This document shows, piece by piece, positions 20,378 to 62,939 of a DNA stretch of 64,000 bases. Source of the stretch: Desulfatiglandales bacterium (lineage in GTDB: Bacteria; Desulfobacterota; DSM-4660; Desulfatiglandales; Desulfatiglandaceae). Each line of letters starts with the position of its first letter. Within the stretch, counting starts at the first letter, position 1. A program made the position numbers and the translations under genes. The DNA lies in contig OY759599.1 in the NCBI GenBank assembly GCA_963662465.1, forward strand, positions 6,720,001 to 6,784,000, given 5' to 3'. The notes under the pieces are model-generated. The model searched no databases. It was not told where the DNA came from and worked only from the letters and a program-made list of their open reading frames with translations.

Positions 20378-20455
20378 AACGACAAGCTCAGCGGCCCCTC
20401 CACCGGCCCCCGCCGGAACCGCCAGACTTCCAGGGGTCCGCTGAAGCGCCTGGTT
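20378..20455 (-). repeat. attC site (host family, subtype B)
   Basis: GCTCAGCGGCCCCT...AGGGGTCCGCTGAAGC, with compensatory changes relative to subtype A. Confidence 0.88.
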
Positions 20456-20480
20456 CGCCAACCCCGGTTTTCTTAAAAGT

Positions 20481-20693
20481 TCAGCCAGTTGCAGCAATTT
20501 TTTCAGACTGTTCATCTAAAGCTCTGAGCGTTTCTTGGATAGCTATTACTTCCGTCTCATCAAAATAGGTCTCACCGCATTGGCTGCATACCCAAGCAGG
20601 AATTCTATCCATAGTGAGATGGTATCCCTTCCGATCAACATGAAAAGGAGCAATGCCTTTTTCCATCTTTCCTTGACAGTAAATGCAGTTCAT
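20481..20693 (-). CDS. YgiT/MqsA-type zinc-finger protein
   Basis: MNCIYCQG...IPAWVCSQCGETYF. Confidence 0.8.
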   Translation of the reverse strand: MNCIYCQGKMEKGIAPFHVDRKGYHLTMDRIPAWVCSQCGETYFDETEVIAIQETLRALDEQSEKIAATG

Positions 20694-21019
20694 GATCGTT
20701 TCCTCTTTTTGAAATCTGATTCCCATTCGCGGGGATTGGGAATATACGCTGTAATGATGGCCAGGTAATCAGTTTTAGGCGAGCAAACGATGTGTATTGA
20801 GCGACCGTCTACACCCTGCCCCAAAATCAGGCAGCTATGCCCTCGCGAATCCCCCGGATAATCCTCAACCAATTCACCTTGCTCCACTGCCTTTCTAACA
20901 TCAAGGGGACTTATCATTCTGTCCGGTCTGGACATCTGCCGCACAGCATGCGGGAGGTAAATGATCCTCTTCCCCGCACTCTCTCGGGCTGACTTTATGG
21001 TATCAGAAACTTCATTCAT
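20690..21019 (-). CDS. DUF4258 protein (putative toxin)
   Basis: HAVRQM, EDYPGDSRGHSCLILG, IHIVC, IITAYIP; coupled to the zinc-finger gene. Confidence 0.8.
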   Translation of the reverse strand: MNEVSDTIKSARESAGKRIIYLPHAVRQMSRPDRMISPLDVRKAVEQGELVEDYPGDSRGHSCLILGQGVDGRSIHIVCSPKTDYLAIITAYIPNPREWESDFKKRKRS

Positions 21020-21186
21020 AACAGACTCTCAAGAAATTAGTGGCGCGAGATAAAATCTGGATCCAGTTTTCCAATTTTGATATTAAATTGGGCATCCCAA
21101 TCCTTCTGAGTATAGACTTAAACGTATGCCATTGGGCGATAATGAAGGATGAAAGGATGCAATAATGTCAGCACGCACCATGCTTC

Positions 21187-23100
21187 TCATTTCAATCCTG
21201 CTTTGTGAAGACCCACTGTTAACTGTTTCCGGATAGCCTCATCTTTATAAGATGCAACAAGATGGCTGATACACGCGAAAGAAAAATCTGGATTTATTTC
21301 TATCACTTTCGACACTTCAAAACGAGTGCCGTCTTCGTCTCCCAAAATCGCATAAACAAAAGCAAGAAATATGTGACCATATAAAAATTTTGGTGCAATT
21401 TGAATTGCACTTTCAAACGCAGAAATCGCTTCATCATACCTGCCGAGTCTCGTATAAGCCCTTCCAAGAACGGTAAAATACCAGGGAGGAGGTAAAGGAT
21501 TTAATCGAAGTGCTTTTTTCAGTGATGTTAGTGCTTCATTAAATTGGCCAATTTTGAATAGATAATAGCACCGAATTACGTAAATGTCCGGCCAATTGGG
21601 ATCCATTTTGATGGCCTTATCGAACTGTTCTAAAGCTTTCTCATCCTTTCCCACAAAAGTATAAACAGCGCCCATTGTTTCGTGAGCAAAAGGACAGGAG
21701 TTATTTACGGTTAGAGCTTTTTGGGCGAGTTCAAATGCTTTTCCGATTGATTCCTTCGGAGTTTTACTCACGCACATTCCCACTTCGGCCAAATAGCCCC
21801 AAGCGAGATAGGCATATGCTGCCCCATAGTTTGGATCTAGTTCGATGGCTTCCTGGCATTTTTGCATGGATAATTTGTTTCCCTCCACATCCCCCTGCCA
21901 ACCGTAATACATAGCCTCAATGAACTTTAAATAAGCACCAACATTATTTGTTCCTCTCGCGCAAGGACCTACACCGATGCCACCAATTATCTTGATATGA
22001 AGAGATTGCGATATTTTTAATGCAATTTCATCTTGTAGGTCGAATATATCGTTAATATTGCGGTCATAAGTCTCCGCCCAAAGATGATTGCCATTCTTAG
22101 TATCAATGAACTGGGCCGTCACACGTATCCGATCCCCAGATTTCTGAATGCTTCCTTCAAGTACATAATGAACATTTAGTTGCTGTCCCAATTCTTTAAT
22201 ATTTACGGGCTTGCCCTTAAAGGTAAAGGTCGTGTTACGGGCGGTAACGGAAAGGTCTGGAATTTTGGCAAGTACAGTAATGATATGCTCTGTGAAACCA
22301 TCGCAAAGATATTGTTGTTTTGGATCGCCAACCATATTGGTGAAAGGCAGAACAGCGATAGAATTCTTCTCAGACATTGGGTTCAGCGGTTTTTTCGCCG
22401 AATCAGACGAAATGCTTTTGAGGGGTGATTTAGCGTCTGTTGGAAGTGAGTTTTGGTTTGGATAAAGACGCCAAAATGCAAGAGCAGCTCCGAGGATTAC
22501 AAGAACAACCATCACCACGACTTTTTTTCTCCCCAATTTCAATTTTCTTTCCGGTTCTGCAGCATCCTCGTGATCTAAGGATATCTTGTAAACCTTTATC
22601 GGTTTAGCGATATTCTTTACTGTGTGCTTACCAATAAAATGAAATCCTAATTCCAACTTGTTTTCGATTTGCTCATAACCGCTTCCAGAAATACAGATTC
22701 CACCACCATCAGCCAATGATTCGATCCTAGCAGCAATGTTTACTCCGTCACCGTAAATGCGATCAGCATCTTGAATAACATCGCCAAGGTTTATGCCCAT
22801 TCTGAAAATCATCCTGCGATTTTCAGGCAGTTCCTCATTCTTGTCCTTCAGAGCTTTCTGGATTTCAACCGCACACTGGACAGCATCCACTACACTGGCG
22901 AATTCAGAAAGAATATTGTCACCGGGAGAATCCACCACACGCCCGCTGTGCCTTTGGACGATTGCAGAGAAAATTTCGCGGTATTCAGTAATGGTTTTGA
23001 CCGTGGCAATCTCATCGTCGCCCATGAGGCGACTATAGCCTTGAACATCTGCGCTAAGTATGGCTCTGAGTTTTCTTACAACTCTATTTGGTTCCATCAC
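21187..23100 (-). CDS. Class III adenylate/guanylate cyclase with TolB-like and TPR domains
   Basis: ILSADVQGYSRLM, GD, FRMGINLGD, YGDGVNIAARIE, SIAVLPF, TPR repeats. Confidence 0.9.
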   Translation of the reverse strand: MMEPNRVVRKLRAILSADVQGYSRLMGDDEIATVKTITEYREIFSAIVQRHSGRVVDSPGDNILSEFASVVDAVQCAVEIQKALKDKNEELPENRRMIFRMGINLGDVIQDADRIYGDGVNIAARIESLADGGGICISGSGYEQIENKLELGFHFIGKHTVKNIAKPIKVYKISLDHEDAAEPERKLKLGRKKVVVMVVLVILGAALAFWRLYPNQNSLPTDAKSPLKSISSDSAKKPLNPMSEKNSIAVLPFTNMVGDPKQQYLCDGFTEHIITVLAKIPDLSVTARNTTFTFKGKPVNIKELGQQLNVHYVLEGSIQKSGDRIRVTAQFIDTKNGNHLWAETYDRNINDIFDLQDEIALKISQSLHIKIIGGIGVGPCARGTNNVGAYLKFIEAMYYGWQGDVEGNKLSMQKCQEAIELDPNYGAAYAYLAWGYLAEVGMCVSKTPKESIGKAFELAQKALTVNNSCPFAHETMGAVYTFVGKDEKALEQFDKAIKMDPNWPDIYVIRCYYLFKIGQFNEALTSLKKALRLNPLPPPWYFTVLGRAYTRLGRYDEAISAFESAIQIAPKFLYGHIFLAFVYAILGDEDGTRFEVSKVIEINPDFSFACISHLVASYKDEAIRKQLTVGLHKAGLK

Positions 23101-23229
23101 CGGCCTCCAAGATAATTGAGACTGAAAAAAAGACTATGAGCAGGGCTGTACATATGGATTGTATCTATAATACGAAACGAATCTATAAATGCCAAATACC
23201 AAATTTGGGGGTTCTACGTCTTTGAAGGC

Positions 23230-25353
23230 TCTCACGGTAGGAACGCCGGTCACCCAGCGCCCCCCGCACAGTCCCGGACGTGCGGTTTTCCCGCATCCGG
23301 TTCCTCGGTTGTACTCGCTTTCGCGCAAAGCATCAGCATTAGCAAAACACCTTTCGTGGCCGGGGTGCCGTCGGTAGCTTCGGTTTGGCGATCCCCAGGC
23401 GATTTATGGCCCGGTTGAAAGCCTTCCAGGTGAAACTTCTCCGCTTACCCCCTCTTCGGTTCAGCCACTTAAACGCACAATCACTCGCCCATCGGTAAAA
23501 ACGCCATAACGAATTGGCGTTCCCCACCACGCTGTAATAGTTGTAATGTCCGCGCAGTTTGCGGTTGAGCGTCTTTATGAACGCAATCCCCTTCAAATGT
23601 CGGTTTTCCTTCACCCATTCCTTGATGCGCCTGCAGGCACCCTGCAGCTTTTTACGGCCGGTGCGCTGCATGACTCTCACCTTTCCCTGTTTGTCATAGG
23701 TCCAGTAGGTCTCAAAACCCAAAAAGACAATCCGCCTGCGCATGCTCGGATCAAAACGACTGAATCGCATCATGGCGGTTTTATCAGGCGCTACACTGAG
23801 GCCAAACTTCAAAAGCCTTTCGGGCAGCACGTGGAAAAACCCTTTTGCCTCTTTTTTGTACTGAAAAGCACAGACAAAATCATCTGCGTACCGAATGATC
23901 ATGGCGGCCCCTTTACAGTGGGGCTTCACCACCTTTTCAAACCATAAGTCAAGGGCAAAATGCAGGTAGACATTGGCCAAAACCGGCGATACAATCCCCC
24001 CTTGGGGAGTACCGCTGTCCGGATGGATAATTTTGCCATCCGTATCCAGAATGCCGGCTTTAAGCCATTTTTGGATCAGATTTAAAAACGGCGCATCATC
24101 AACTCTTTCCATGAGCATTCGCATCAGCCAATCATGGTCCATATGGTCGAAAAAGCCTTTGATATCGGCCTCGACGACATATCCATATGATCCAAACTGA
24201 AGTTCAAAACGCAAATCATTGACAGCGTCTTTTGCGCTTCGGTTGGGCCTGTAACCATAGCTGACATTCAGAAAGTCAGCTTCGAATATGGCTGTCAGGA
24301 GTTTGGCACATGCCAATTGCACCAACCGGTCTTCAAGGGCCGGAATGCCCAAGGGGCGTTGTTTGCCGTTTTCTTTGGGGATGTAACTTCTGCGTACCAG
24401 TTTGGCACGGTAACGTCTGGTTTTCAATCGCTCCGCCAATGACGCGATATTGGCCTCAAGATTTCCTTCGTAGGCCTCGGCCGTCACTTTGTCCACACCA
24501 CTGGCTGCATCCTTATTCAGGTCTTTCCAGCAGGCACGGAGAAACGGCGCGTTCAGACACCGGTAAAGGTCTTGAAAGCGGTGTTTTCCATCAACTTTTG
24601 CCTTAATGGCTATTCCCTGCAGTGAGGTTGGCTCGTATTGTTCCAGCCCTACATTGTCCGGTGCGAGTTTCCTTTGCAGACTGCGTACTTCCGTCAGGTC
24701 CTTCCCCATGTGGTGGGCTTTCCCCACCGCTGAGTAGTATGCCTGATAAGACACCCCATTGGCGTATAGAGGGCCATCGGAGGTCCGATTTTCCTCCCAC
24801 CCGGTTGTTCCTTTCAGCATTTCGGCTGTGTAGTGAACCACTGTTACTTTACCTCACCGTCAGTGTGAAATAAACTCCCTGGAGCCTTTGGGGCTTCCCG
24901 AGTTCTACGGCGCATCTCTTCCTGCATGCCACGGCCTGAGGACTCCGGCGGACCTCCACATCCTCGCCATAAACGGATGCTTCCGTGTTGCCTTCGGTGA
25001 ACGTTCAAACCCTCGGCGTCCGCAATTGCTATTTCGAAGCTGTACCAGCACTTCAGGGTGCGCGATCACCCCTGCGGCCTACAGGATACTCTGCCTACGC
25101 TTAACCCATCTTGTTCGCTGCTTCCACCGTTAGGTGGGGTGAGTCCATCCGCCTATTTGCTCATCCCTGAGCGCGGCTCGTTTCCAACCAGCATATGAAT
25201 GCCGATGTCCTACACCTGACAGACTGAACAACTCCGCCATGGGTCCAAGGCTCGATACGGGTGGGTGGCTAACCCTTACAGAAAGCCATTACTGATTTTC
25301 CTCCCGACAGGGACTTTCACCCTGCAAGATACGCCGAGCTTTCCTCGGCGCGA
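23230..25353 (-). mobile_element. Group II intron (class E-like) inserted in attC R'
   Basis: 5' end TCGCGCCGAGGAAAGCTCGGCG; DV GAGGAACCGGATGCGGGAAAACCGCACGTCCGGGACTG; 3' CCTACCGTGAGA; removal restores GTTCGCC; ends accurate to +/-1 nt. Confidence 0.82.
23339..24841 (-). CDS. Group II intron reverse transcriptase/maturase (no endonuclease domain)
   Basis: RPLGIP, DIKGFFD, GTPQGG, RYADD, LRGHYNYY; the true start is probably later than 24841. Confidence 0.92.
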   Translation of the reverse strand: MVHYTAEMLKGTTGWEENRTSDGPLYANGVSYQAYYSAVGKAHHMGKDLTEVRSLQRKLAPDNVGLEQYEPTSLQGIAIKAKVDGKHRFQDLYRCLNAPFLRACWKDLNKDAASGVDKVTAEAYEGNLEANIASLAERLKTRRYRAKLVRRSYIPKENGKQRPLGIPALEDRLVQLACAKLLTAIFEADFLNVSYGYRPNRSAKDAVNDLRFELQFGSYGYVVEADIKGFFDHMDHDWLMRMLMERVDDAPFLNLIQKWLKAGILDTDGKIIHPDSGTPQGGIVSPVLANVYLHFALDLWFEKVVKPHCKGAAMIIRYADDFVCAFQYKKEAKGFFHVLPERLLKFGLSVAPDKTAMMRFSRFDPSMRRRIVFLGFETYWTYDKQGKVRVMQRTGRKKLQGACRRIKEWVKENRHLKGIAFIKTLNRKLRGHYNYYSVVGNANSLWRFYRWASDCAFKWLNRRGGKRRSFTWKAFNRAINRLGIAKPKLPTAPRPRKVFC

Positions 25354-25354
25354 G

Positions 25355-25478
25355 AACGTTTTAGTTAACAGGCGAACGGGCAAGAAAGAAATATGCGACC
25401 AATCCACCCGGAAGCGTGATACGGAAAAATCAATTTCAATTTGCTCCAATGACCAGTTTGCCTGTTCAACGGCTGGTT
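25355..25478 (-). repeat. attC site (divergent, long)
   Basis: AAC-GTTTTA-GTTAACAGGCGAAC...GTTTGCCTGTTCAAC-GGCTG-GTT. Confidence 0.75.
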
Positions 25479-26985
25479 GGACAGACCCGCGGGTCACACG
25501 CACATAGGTTAATGGGAGCAGGATCGCCGCTATGGAGATTAAACGATCTTTGCAGCTACCGCATGACTTCTTTTTGACCCATCATTCCGGCCTAAGCCAG
25601 TTAAAAATGATAAAATTTCTTTTTTTGATCGCATGGTCCCGCTAAAAATGCCAAAATATCGTGTTATTAGGCAGTTTACCAAACACCTCGACATCAAAAA
25701 CCTTTCACTCGACTAAAGACCTTTCGACTGCGCATGCTTAATCTATGCTGCTTGGGCGTGTATCATGTCCTGGACTTTATTGAACCTCGGAAGCTCTCTT
25801 AACTTTTTGACCGGCGTCAATATTTCCAGAGTTATGAGGCGTTTCCCGCAAACAGGGCAACAATCCGGTCGCTCGTCGCTTCGCTGTTGCCAGAGACTCT
25901 GCCAATCCAGGAATCCCAGACTTTCAAGAGGCGGTTGACCCAGTATTTCCCGGCAGAGTGCCAGTTCTTCTTTTGAGCTGTGATGATAGAGTTCGTATGA
26001 ACGCACCATCACGGTATTTGCTAGGGGGACGTGTTGCAGATAGCGGCTGATAAAGGTTTGAATCGGCAGGGAGATGAGTTTTACCTTCTCACGACCGTAA
26101 TTGAAGGTCACGTTCCCGTTTTCAATGCTGTAGATGCGTTTGTTTGAAATTGCTCCGCCTCTCAAGTAACGCGCCAGGTAAATCAACACGCCTTCACCGT
26201 ATGAATAGGTCTCTTTGAGCTTGACGTTCCATTTTTTGCGGCGGCCCAGTTTATTGAAGAGGTTCCGGGCCTGCTGAGGCCCCATACCCTCGGGCAGAAC
26301 CAGTTCGTTCCGATCCAGGGCTTTTCTCAAATAGTAGAGGTACTTGCCTCGAAATACCGCCCGGACGATGCCAAAGGGCAAAAGGAATTTTTTTGATGAA
26401 GCGATCCACTCGCCGGCGATCAGCCCACCGGCCGTTACCAGACAATGCAGATGCGGATGAAAGTCCAGTTTTCGGCTCCAGGTATGCAGTGAGGCGATGA
26501 TGCCGACTTTGCCCCCCAAATGCTTCGGATCTCCAAGGAGTTCGGAAAGGGTTTCAGTGGCGCTTTTGAACAGCAGATTGCCCATAAGCTTGCGGTTCAA
26601 CCGCCATAAGTCGTGCAATTCATCGGAGATGGTGAAAATAACATGGAAATGTTCGGTGTTTAAGATGCGAGCCTTTTGTTTTGCCAGCCAACGTTCCACC
26701 TGGGTAAAAGCGCAGAGGGGGCACATGCGATGTTTACACGAGTTGTACCAGTGCCTTTTGAAGTGACCGTCCGGGCACGCCTGCACGTGACCCCCCAGAG
26801 CAGATGTGCGGCAACTCATCAGACGGTGTGCCGCTTCACGAATATGTTCCGGAAGAAGATGGGTCTGATCATAGAGGGCATAGCCTATAAGAAAGATGCT
26901 CTGAATCGTCGCTTCCACTGAAACCTCCTTTATTTACTGGGAGTTACGACGTTAGTTCCCCCGCTGTCCAGCGGGTCTGTCCAAC
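25476..26985 (-). mobile_element. IS91-like element/cassette bounded by a 15-bp inverted repeat GTTGGACAGACCCGC
   Basis: IR at 25476-25490 and 26971-26985, coinciding with attC R boxes. Confidence 0.75.
25743..26918 (-). CDS. IS91-family (Y2 HUH) rolling-circle transposase
   Basis: CRT..LGG, NSCKHRMCPLC zinc domain, HVIFTI, LHTW, HPHLH, YLARY. Confidence 0.92.
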   Translation of the reverse strand: MEATIQSIFLIGYALYDQTHLLPEHIREAAHRLMSCRTSALGGHVQACPDGHFKRHWYNSCKHRMCPLCAFTQVERWLAKQKARILNTEHFHVIFTISDELHDLWRLNRKLMGNLLFKSATETLSELLGDPKHLGGKVGIIASLHTWSRKLDFHPHLHCLVTAGGLIAGEWIASSKKFLLPFGIVRAVFRGKYLYYLRKALDRNELVLPEGMGPQQARNLFNKLGRRKKWNVKLKETYSYGEGVLIYLARYLRGGAISNKRIYSIENGNVTFNYGREKVKLISLPIQTFISRYLQHVPLANTVMVRSYELYHHSSKEELALCREILGQPPLESLGFLDWQSLWQQRSDERPDCCPVCGKRLITLEILTPVKKLRELPRFNKVQDMIHAQAA

Positions 26986-27060
26986 GACAAGCTCAGCGGT
27001 CCCTCCACCGGCCCCCGCCAGAACCGCAAGACTTCCAGGGGTCCGCTGAAGCGTTTGGTT
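26983..27060 (-). repeat. attC site (host family, subtype B)
   Basis: Repeat family match; R'' GCCAAC matches R' GTTGGC at 32327-32332. Confidence 0.88.
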
Positions 27061-27239
27061 GGCGCTCATAAACCTATCTAAACGCACGATATTGATAAAT
27101 AAACAGCCAGCACCTGATTGCATAAATGCCTTCTTACTTTGATGTCACGCAAGTAAAAGGTTGTTGGGTTCCCCAAAGTGTCATTGGGCAACTGGAACTT
27201 CGAAACCCCTGCCTAAAAATAATTCATATTCCTTATTCA

Positions 27240-60713: not shown

Positions 60714-62939
60714 GTCGAGTAGCCAGGGGATGTTGCCATCCCCCAGCCCTCTAAGAACCGTGCGTGCGCCGTTAAACGCACACGGCTCAAGCATTCCAAA
60801 GGCAAGCCCTTTCGGGGCTACCCGGTTGTGACGTTTTATGCTCTTTACGCCTGTCTGCCTTCTGCTGACTGCGTTGGGCATATCGTTTCCTGAAATAGTG
60901 TTCATATTTCGGATCGAAGGGGTTCGCATCCCCTCGAATTTTGACATGGCGTTTTATCTTGACGTCGTAAGCTTTCTCAAGTTCAATTCTAGCGGATTTC
61001 GCATAGCCGTCCTTGATCACCGCTGAAAAGGACCACGGACGAGATCCTTTTGACCAGTATTTATCCACCAGCCAACTCTTACTCTTGCCCGAATGTTTCC
61101 TCCTCATCCATTGCCAAATATAGCTGTAGATACGGTGATCTACAAGCCCGAAAGTTCTACCGGAAACCACATGCCTGTGGTAATTGGCCCATCCCCTGAT
61201 TTTGGGATTGAGCACTTTAATCAGGGTGTCGGCTCTTGATGCCGCATGCTTTCGGATCGTTTGCCGGATATTGCCTAAGAAGGCTTTCACGTTTTTACGA
61301 GAGGGCTTTATCAAGAGCTTCCCCTGGTATTTGCGTGGATTCTGTCCGAGAAAATCAAATCCTTCTTCTATCCTTGTGATCAACGTCTTTTCCGCTGAAA
61401 GCGAAAGTCCTCTTCGCTCCATAAATGCTTCAATTTCCAGCTTGATCTCATTTAGCATCTCTCTGGAATTCCCGGTGATGATGAAATCATCAGCGTAACG
61501 GATTACGTTTATCTTGGACCGTATATTGCCCTGGATTCTTATCGGGGCGGTACTTTTGGCTGCCGCTTCCAGACCATCCAGGACCATATTAGCCAATGTT
61601 GGAGAGATAATCCCGCCTTGCGGGGTTCCTCTGTAAGTCGGATAGAGCTTGCCTCCTTCCACATAACCGGATTTCAGCCATTTCTGAAGCGTCCGTTTAT
61701 CCATGGGGATATTTTCGAGCATCCATTGATGGCTGATTTCGTCAAAACAGGCCTTTATGTCTCCCTCCAAAATCCATGCGGGTGAGTAGCTCTTGGCCAG
61801 AGAAATAAAACAATGACCGATGGCATCCGCACATCCTCGATAGGCTCTGAACCCATAAGAGTTCGGATCGGCGGTGGTTTCCGCCACCGGATCAAGGGCC
61901 AGTTTGTGCAACGCCTGCATGGCTCTGTCTTTCATGGTGGGAATGCCCAATGGGCGTTTCTTGCCGTTTTTCTTGGGTATGTAAATTCGGCGCAGCGGTT
62001 TGGGTCGGTAAGTTCTTCGGTGCAGGTCTTTTGCCGCCTGCATTTTGTCAATGTGGGTGGACCATATAACTTTATCCACTCCCGGCGTGCGTTTACCTCG
62101 GTTGGAAGTAACGCGCTTGATGGCCAACAACTTGGCATAAAACGAATGGGTCAAAAGCCATTGTATTGCCTTAACCTTTCCCCATCGCTTTTCCTTCACA
62201 GCCTTTGCGATACGCACCTGCAGTCTTCTAACGTGCTCGCCGGCGGTTCTCCAGTTTATGGATTTCCACCAGTTTGTTCCGTCCAAAGGTGCACCAGTCG
62301 CCAAAATGGCCACCGTCATTTGCTTTCCCCTGTTTGAAGATTCTACAAATTATCTCGCAATGGAACACCGGTCAGAAGTCTGCTCTCTTTCGAGCCGGAT
62401 CATGTAGGTGATTACACCGTCAATCCGTATCCCCATCATTACAACGGGGCATTTGCTTTTTTCTGACATCCTTTACCCGCAACCCCATGGGCTCACCTTG
62501 CGGTTCGCTTTCCCCGTGGGGAGGATTACGGGCTTACCATGTTCCGCGTAAGTACCCGAGCAGGTTAGGTTCCGCCCGTACGCCGGTGGCACGACATCCG
62601 CGATGGAGGAGTTCGCAGCCCCCATACCTGGCCACATACCGTTTGGTCCAAGCCTTTCAGCATCTTAGGCTTGTTCTCGTGACGACGCTGCAGCGATTCA
62701 CATGTGTTAACCATACTGCTCAATTCTAGCTCCCTTACCGCATGATGCTTGCAGAGTTGAGGTCTCCTCACGGTTCCCTCTCCCGGAAGATTCCGCGGGC
62801 TTCATTGTCCCGAGAGCTTCACACCCCCGGATTACTCCGGACGCATGTCCCGGTAGAATACCTGTTGCAGAAAACAGGGTTTTGTTATATGGTTTATATC
62901 AATATACAAAACAGCTACTTACGCGACATCACGTCGCAC
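60714..62939 (-). mobile_element. Complete CL-type group II intron inserted in attC R'
   Basis: 5' GTGCGACGTGATGTCG; DV GAGCCGTGTGCGTTTAACGGCGCACGCACGGTTC; 3' CTACTCGAC; removal restores GTTCGCG. Confidence 0.9.
60787..62319 (-). CDS. Group II intron reverse transcriptase/maturase (CL lineage, no HNH domain)
   Basis: RVT_N (VRRLQVRIAKA), RPLGIPT, GTPQGG, RYADD, IRGWANYH. Confidence 0.93.
   Translation of the reverse strand: MTVAILATGAPLDGTNWWKSINWRTAGEHVRRLQVRIAKAVKEKRWGKVKAIQWLLTHSFYAKLLAIKRVTSNRGKRTPGVDKVIWSTHIDKMQAAKDLHRRTYRPKPLRRIYIPKKNGKKRPLGIPTMKDRAMQALHKLALDPVAETTADPNSYGFRAYRGCADAIGHCFISLAKSYSPAWILEGDIKACFDEISHQWMLENIPMDKRTLQKWLKSGYVEGGKLYPTYRGTPQGGIISPTLANMVLDGLEAAAKSTAPIRIQGNIRSKINVIRYADDFIITGNSREMLNEIKLEIEAFMERRGLSLSAEKTLITRIEEGFDFLGQNPRKYQGKLLIKPSRKNVKAFLGNIRQTIRKHAASRADTLIKVLNPKIRGWANYHRHVVSGRTFGLVDHRIYSYIWQWMRRKHSGKSKSWLVDKYWSKGSRPWSFSAVIKDGYAKSARIELEKAYDVKIKRHVKIRGDANPFDPKYEHYFRKRYAQRSQQKADRRKEHKTSQPGSPERACLWNA

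Follow-up and report, generated by a model that had tools for sequence, protein, structure and literature searches.

IS91 inserts only bottom-strand single-stranded circles (PMC13181058; here and below, papers are cited for the accessible parts of their text), and the attC sites of integrons recombine as folded bottom strands (PMC4792948). Mobile elements resident in cassette arrays include the IS1111-attC elements and group II introns, which have their own enzymes, insert into or beside an existing attC and bring no attC with them (PMC9229058, PMC7923331). An IS91-family transposase can itself occupy a cassette: gcISKpn22, so named in INTEGRALL, is the fourth cassette of the class 1 integron In722 (PMC6262049), and no mechanism for it is given in the accessible text of PMC6262049 or PMC12772345. 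The design has been catalogued in gcISKpn22 and, in passing, in ISShvi3, and it is widespread; as far as we searched, its mechanism is undescribed. ISShvi3 is presumably of a two-gene type that combines a tyrosine recombinase with an IS91 transposase, and we take such elements to be a subgroup in ISfinder. It lies beside an attC (PMC9229058). Nothing on the element described below was found in the accessible text of PMC5737581, PMC7923331 or PMC8876359, and no mechanistic account was found in the searchable literature, a scope outside which lie ISfinder, INTEGRALL, subscription papers and supplements.

A transposase gene in a cassette with its own attC

The window, by which we mean the whole 64,000-nt stretch analyzed, contains an intact open reading frame for an IS91-family HUH/Y2 transposase (Table 1). 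It lies between two attC sites, as the initial annotation had described, the upstream one belonging to the host family and the downstream one to another family. The gene starts with GTG, preceded by an AAGGAGG motif. Its product has the Pfam domains Zn_Tnp_IS91 and Y2_Tnp, scores 347 bits against NCBIfam NF033538 (IS91 family transposase; cut-off, 125) and carries motifs that align with those of IS91 and IS1294; the solved structures compared with it gave no match. H154, H156, H158, Y247 and Y251 did not vary among the homologs that reach 340 aa (114 of 114, from a list of 120), and dN/dS between the transposase subfamilies of this genome was 0.03 to 0.10. By these measures the catalytic motifs are under purifying selection, across the clade of solo forms (see below) too.

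Only 67 nt separate the crossover from the transposase start codon, which leaves no room for an upstream tyrosine recombinase gene as in the two-gene elements, and no promoter-like or terminator-like site was found for the cassette. The downstream attC, which had been judged foreign to the host family, measures 124 nt from AAC to GTT (25478-25355), has canonical L boxes and is absent from the 46 host-family sites. Folded in place with the neighbor's R' box, this attC gave no significant structure (z = −1.07); a related B-type attC joined to its own left end, as in a natural tandem junction, folded with a z score of −3.84, the inverted repeat (IR) extending the attC stem.

Table 1. Features of the transposase cassette and its surroundings, in window coordinates unless stated otherwise
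Feature	Position	Strand	Remarks
IS91-family HUH/Y2 transposase gene	25743..26918	(-)	391 aa; HPHLH at 154-158, YLARY at 247-251
Mobile unit (transposase + own attC)	25358..26985	(-)	1,628-bp cassette, G|TT to G|TT; boundaries equal in genome copies with other flanks
Left IR arm	26971..26985	(-)	R' box after G|TT crossover + 8 nt
Right IR arm	25476..25490	(-)	ends in R'' box (GTCCAAC) of own attC
Own attC	25351..25482	(-)	R'' 25476-25482, L'' 25464-25470, L' 25364-25369, R' 25351-25357; extrahelical base
Upstream host-family attC of preceding cassette (insertion site)	26979..27064	(-)	among 46 host-family sites
terIS-like subterminal hairpin	26960..26975	(-)	starts 3 nt after GGAC
terIS-type tetranucleotide GTCC	26979-26982	(+)	within left IR arm
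oriIS-like core motif TTAATCTCCATAG	25530..25542	(-)	~200 nt past stop codon, 55 nt before end of R''
Group II intron	23339..25353	(-)	RT ORF 23339-24841; in start of next cassette, outside element; 5' end approximate
Duplicated 6,684-bp block	20378-27061 and G000:C1:6782943-6789626		

The unit has the sequence hallmarks of an integron gene cassette, namely, R'', L'', L' and R' boxes with an extrahelical base, G|TT boundaries and an attC that travels with the gene. It resembles ordinary gene cassettes in its promoterless gene, its R/L-box attC with the extrahelical base, its G|TT crossover and its occurrence first at attI, but it differs from them in having a mobility enzyme with conserved end signals as its cargo, in the extension of the R stem to 15 bp and in its high copy number. 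Unlike the IS1111-attC elements and group II introns, with which it shares residence in cassette arrays, it brings its own attC. The likeness to gcISKpn22 is considerable: there, too, a solo IS91-family transposase (37.7% identity) lies between the attC of aadA2 and an attC of its own, the ends read G|TTGAAC...GTTCAAC, the extrahelical base is present, and the protein falls in the solo group of our tree. gcISKpn22 differs in its 9-bp IR, weak left hairpin and degenerate ori-like motif and in being a single copy in its record.

The inverted repeat and the end signals

The initial annotation had taken a 15-bp IR to be the terminal repeat of the element. The repeat is indeed perfect, but it is internal on the right, where its arm is the R'' box and is followed by an attC that forms part of the mobile unit. 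Each subfamily keeps its attC while the flanks change; this attC moves with the unit although it lies outside the IR, and we rejected the terminal-IR model. No target duplication was seen beyond the shared GTT. Among the genome cassettes scored, positions 8 to 15 of the repeat matched at 7 or 8 of 8 in all 10 transposase cassettes versus 0 to 5 of 8 in all 7 other single cassettes, a baseline that is small because introns interrupt many cassette starts. The 15-bp IR was common to the window subclade and most two-gene forms. It shrinks to 7 to 9 bp in other solo lineages, so 15 bp is no family requirement, and we rejected it as a family trait.

The hairpin noted just inside the upstream end was also found, folding as CCCGCT/AGCGGG (z = −2.8). 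Across the family the left end is laid out as G(A/G)AC, 3 nt and a hairpin; the fetched records of IS1294 and IS91 begin with GAAC-CAC-hairpin and CGAG-TAG-hairpin, respectively, and this terIS layout has been described for the IS91 family (PMC13181058). In sequence geometry, the window element thus has the tetranucleotide beside a subterminal palindrome that characterizes terIS. A stem of at least 4 bp starting at position 11 was present in 30 of 39 family loci versus 5 of 43 control cassette starts, and 13 different stem sequences occurred at this fixed position, as expected of compensatory stems; the other 9 of the 39 left ends lacked the fixed hairpin. Because the left end has terIS geometry, the predicted HUH cut (GTCC|AAC on the bottom strand, between 26982 and 26983) would fall inside R', 2 nt from the predicted IntI crossover between 26984 and 26985 (IntI crosses over in attC at A/C; PMC4792948). 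The terIS-type tetranucleotide is positions 4 to 7 of R', which lends indirect support to the idea that the HUH enzyme may cut at R boxes.

At the other end, the core motif TTAATCTCCATAG resembles IS91 TAAATTCCTATCG and the right end of IS1294. Such an oriIS-like motif was present in 31 of 34 family right ends versus 4 of 46 host attC controls, a count that is partly circular in that the right ends were located partly by this motif. It lies 19 to 63 nt from R'' in the family, versus 4 to 5 nt from the cut in IS91, and in the window it is ~180 nt from the boundary instead of directly at the right end beside CTTG, GTTC or GTCC. The 34 right ends had no conserved hairpin (median z, +0.26), and we therefore rejected the idea that both ends are terIS copies. 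Canonical GTYC target choice was rejected as well, as it was seen at 0 of 8 right flanks.

The element shares with IS91, IS801 and IS1294 its protein family and catalytic motifs, the tetranucleotide, 3 nt and hairpin at the left end, the ori core motif downstream of tnp and apparently, the shared GTT aside, the lack of target duplication. It differs from them in the attC placed between the ori motif and the right boundary, in insertion at G|TT instead of next to CTTG/GTTC, in its short IR, in the absence of orf121 and in being only 22 to 28% identical. Judged on sequence, then, it is an IS91 element in protein and end signals, yet it departs from IS91 in its ori end and target and is built as a gene cassette. 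A conventional IS91-type element is also present in this genome (e.g., G000 C1:380988-382094), in ~10 copies that are 22% identical and have flanks of the CTTG/GTTC type; its ATAGGAA motif precedes the gene, the reverse of the arrangement in IS91. One solo subgroup (L109-L112, L123 and L129) seems to have a further, short reading frame after the left hairpin and ahead of the transposase; it recalls orf121.

Copies, relatives and junctions

The genome holds 17 copies of the element at 10 loci (79 to 100% identity), all in an integron context. Intact copies run from G|TTGGAC to the G|TT of their own attC and measure 1,601 to 1,628 bp. At three loci the element is first at attI beside an intact intI, at one it follows a similar attI-like site with no intI within 4 kb, at four it follows a forward attC, and at two a group II intron sits in its left end. 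It is oriented with the array directly after attI or attC at 8 of 10 loci, the other 2 being those interrupted by introns. The left GTT is invariant across copies; right flanks vary immediately after the G, with one G|AT, and 0 of 8 read GTT-GRAC. The same array has a second copy, 99.7% identical, of a 6,684-bp block with G|TT ends that comprises the transposase cassette and the next one with its intron, and this co-movement of a downstream cassette fits IntI excision and not IS91-type one-ended transposition.

Group II introns are a recurrent feature of these arrays (window positions 23339-25353 and 60714-62879, and other arrays); they have cassette orientation and lie 4 to 7 nt past the G|TT crossover of many cassettes.

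Relatives of the transposase split into solo forms and two-gene forms, the latter with a tyrosine recombinase upstream of the transposase. A quick maximum-likelihood tree was built from 90 rows, with duplicates and matches shorter than 250 residues excluded and only 6 of 51 near-identical soil loci kept; it has long branches at gcISKpn22 and L100 and an unsure root. A branch in this tree separated the 31 solo rows (SH-aLRT, 92) from the two-gene rows (97), both groups lying far from IS91 and IS1294. The two-gene sister group has the same left end, the ori-like motif, a 13- to 15-bp IR, a right-end hairpin closed by GTT and insertion at GTT. Its XerD-like recombinases lack the IntI insertion and score below the IntI cut-off, and its hairpins are free of bulges: an attC-type L stem with a base bulged at position 4 was found at 19 of 19 solo right ends and at 0 of 12 two-gene ends, which comprised 9 near-perfect stems and 3 of poor fit. 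One genome, G136 (L176-L185 and L193-L195), gave 29 matches to the left-end pattern; those fetched were two-gene recombinase-IS91 elements at GTT, some of them backwards at the R'' of an attC.

The proposed association of transposase homologs with attC was borne out for the solo forms. A forward attC scoring 8 or 9 of 9 was found at 14 of 29 solo left flanks, at 0 of 36 two-gene left flanks and at 2 of 400 random GTT sites, counts that are not independent in that many loci are close kin. The remaining solo flanks were attI beside intI (4), attI-like by eye (6), attC-like by eye with a score of 6 (3) and unclassified (2); one further detail is that the intI upstream of the solo form L111 is on the opposite strand. 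Such a difference between solo and two-gene flanks would be expected of elements that rely on host IntI, having lost (or never had) a recombinase of their own. Lacking the XerD-like recombinase of its sister group, the solo form is likely to depend on IntI.

The initial annotation had left two routes of mobility side by side. One, borrowing of IntI, is supported by the G|TT junctions, the position first at attI, the attC with its extrahelical base and the co-movement of the downstream cassette, and we infer it from those junctions. The other, targeting of attC by both ends, found no support for this solo form: on the right the boundary falls at the R' crossover in the element's own attC rather than at the IR, whose right arm lacks a conserved hairpin. 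An HUH enzyme that both excised and inserted the element at R boxes, without IntI, would by an NNNN|AAC cut in donor and target yield the same GTT junctions as IntI, and among 25 left flanks of two-gene relatives, from three related genomes, 6 do place the element at the R'' of an attC in reverse orientation. The G|AT right flank, together with G|TA, G|GT and G|CT in the two-gene relatives, places the crossover right after the G, however; in addition, the extrahelical base read by IntI is kept in solo forms, attI is a frequent target, and the downstream cassette moved along with the element. We therefore regard action by the HUH enzyme alone as highly improbable.

A possible mechanism and the question of cassette genesis

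A single copy is the commonest state, at 9 of 10 loci. At the remaining locus, eight head-to-tail units of 1,609 bp form an array at attI; they differ neither from one another nor from the single copy in a different integron. No array of this kind was seen for any other cassette in a listing of 11 tandem repeats, five of them judged by their first bases only. IntI alone can duplicate cassettes, and tandem copies can also arise by homologous recombination. Head-to-tail junctions were also present in L024, L028 and L110 and in the two-gene L119; where they lie on short contigs, such junctions may reflect collapsed repeats or circles. X1 and X2, which are one sample and so may not be independent, showed a B-type head-to-tail loose end. 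The contigs of four runs held no circle joint of the window (A-type) subfamily; a 25353-26982 joint in those runs may come from other host-attC/intron sites.

Our favored reading, which we consider fairly probable on the basis of sequence, is that the element is an IS91-derived cassette copied out by its HUH enzyme as a bottom-strand single-stranded circle and pasted in by host IntI. With no promoter-like site of its own, the transposase would depend for its expression on a first position at attI and would be expressed mainly there. On the ori side, the enzyme would nick the R' box in the bottom strand, and attC, ori and tnp would be displaced by replication. Termination at hairpin-N3-GTCC|AAC would allow closure of a circle identical to an IntI-excised cassette and leave the donor intact. 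Because IS91 circles and folded attC sites are both bottom single strands, the product of the first enzyme would be the substrate of the second, and IntI would recombine the folded attC, its R stem extended to 15 bp by the IR, with attI or attC. The circle junction would read ori-like motif, spacer, attC, GTT and terIS, in effect the circle junction of an IS91 with an attC inside it, and tandem arrays would stem from repeated rounds at attI or from rolling-circle concatemers.

Some observations count against copying out. The ori-side bases are variable, being supplied by the next cassette, so initiation would break the tetranucleotide rule of IS91, and the ori-like motif is farther from R'' than the IS91 motif is from its cut. 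The first of these, the nonconserved ori-side cut site, is what a passive cassette would show, one moved only by IntI with an HUH enzyme and end signals that serve another purpose or were carried over from a two-gene ancestor. IntI explains every junction seen, and the missing circle joint points the same way. Against passivity stand the purifying selection seen throughout the solo clade, with its invariant catalytic residues, the left hairpin that holds its position through 13 different stem sequences and the eight-unit array with no counterpart among the other cassettes in the tandem repeats listed, and we regard it as unlikely. It is quite unlikely, in our estimation, that the enzyme acts solely as a plasmid-like replicase on IntI-excised circles, nicking a restored GTCC|AAC and producing concatemers for integration by IntI. 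A circle or a tandem junction re-creates the terIS-type tetranucleotide beside attC, so the variable right flanks would pose no problem, and eight identical tandem units at attI would follow naturally. IntI would be required for both steps, however, the distance of the ori-like motif from the cut would be explained no better than by copying out and IntI paste-in, and nine loci in ten carry a single copy.

If copying out by the HUH enzyme and pasting in by IntI did take place, integrons would be home to a selfish cassette, one that provides the single-stranded substrate itself and is copied with the help of the host integrase. Such a two-enzyme route, absent from the searchable papers, would join two separately known systems of gene mobility, and a member of the group is present in the clinical class 1 integron In722. 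With a defined enzyme and a predicted cut 2 nt from that of IntI, a link between HUH enzymes and attC, including any part in cassette genesis, is directly testable.

A general role in cassette genesis, which the initial annotation had raised, found no support, because ordinary cassettes start without the signal: GTTGRAC opened only 2 of 43. A more specific form of the idea is that the transposase cuts in R boxes and that slipped termination, or joining to another attC, attaches an attC to new DNA, which would make it a cassette-creating enzyme; elements with a recombinase, an HUH enzyme and attC-like hairpins would then be living relatives of an IntI/attC ancestor. Close relatives differ by an exchange of the attC at R'' (74 nt in L001 and 119 nt in L022, at 88% protein identity), with an attC identity of 0.45 versus 0.83 just upstream, and L003, L028 and L029 have three attC types. 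On the strength of this replacement we retain the idea of cassette creation, as a very doubtful one. A search for the L001-type attC as a host repeat in G197, a genome that is 80% complete, matched only the element's own copy.

Gene-less units that keep the left-end signal of the element and an attC were also found; they count in favor of the copying-out reading and are a further hint of cassette creation. Two mini-cassettes of ~205 bp (G000:C1:2362639-2362843 and 4723456-4723660) are 93% alike and have an attC, the left end and an ori-like motif in degenerate form; related ones of ~280 bp lie at 3208415 and 3355706 of the same contig, the latter within the attC of a transposase copy, inside the L'' box. 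These mini-cassettes are candidate nonautonomous derivatives. A gene-less unit of a few hundred bases at G000:C1:139292, on the (-) strand, has, on either side, an end like those of the two-gene elements in G136 and G198. Elsewhere in the window, from 35653 down to ~35100 on the (-) strand, the cassette start GTTGGACGAAGCC resembles the two-gene left end and is followed by an HNH gene. A MITE-like insert of 104 bp, which has a 10-bp direct repeat and matches 14 other places in the genome, interrupts this cassette start.
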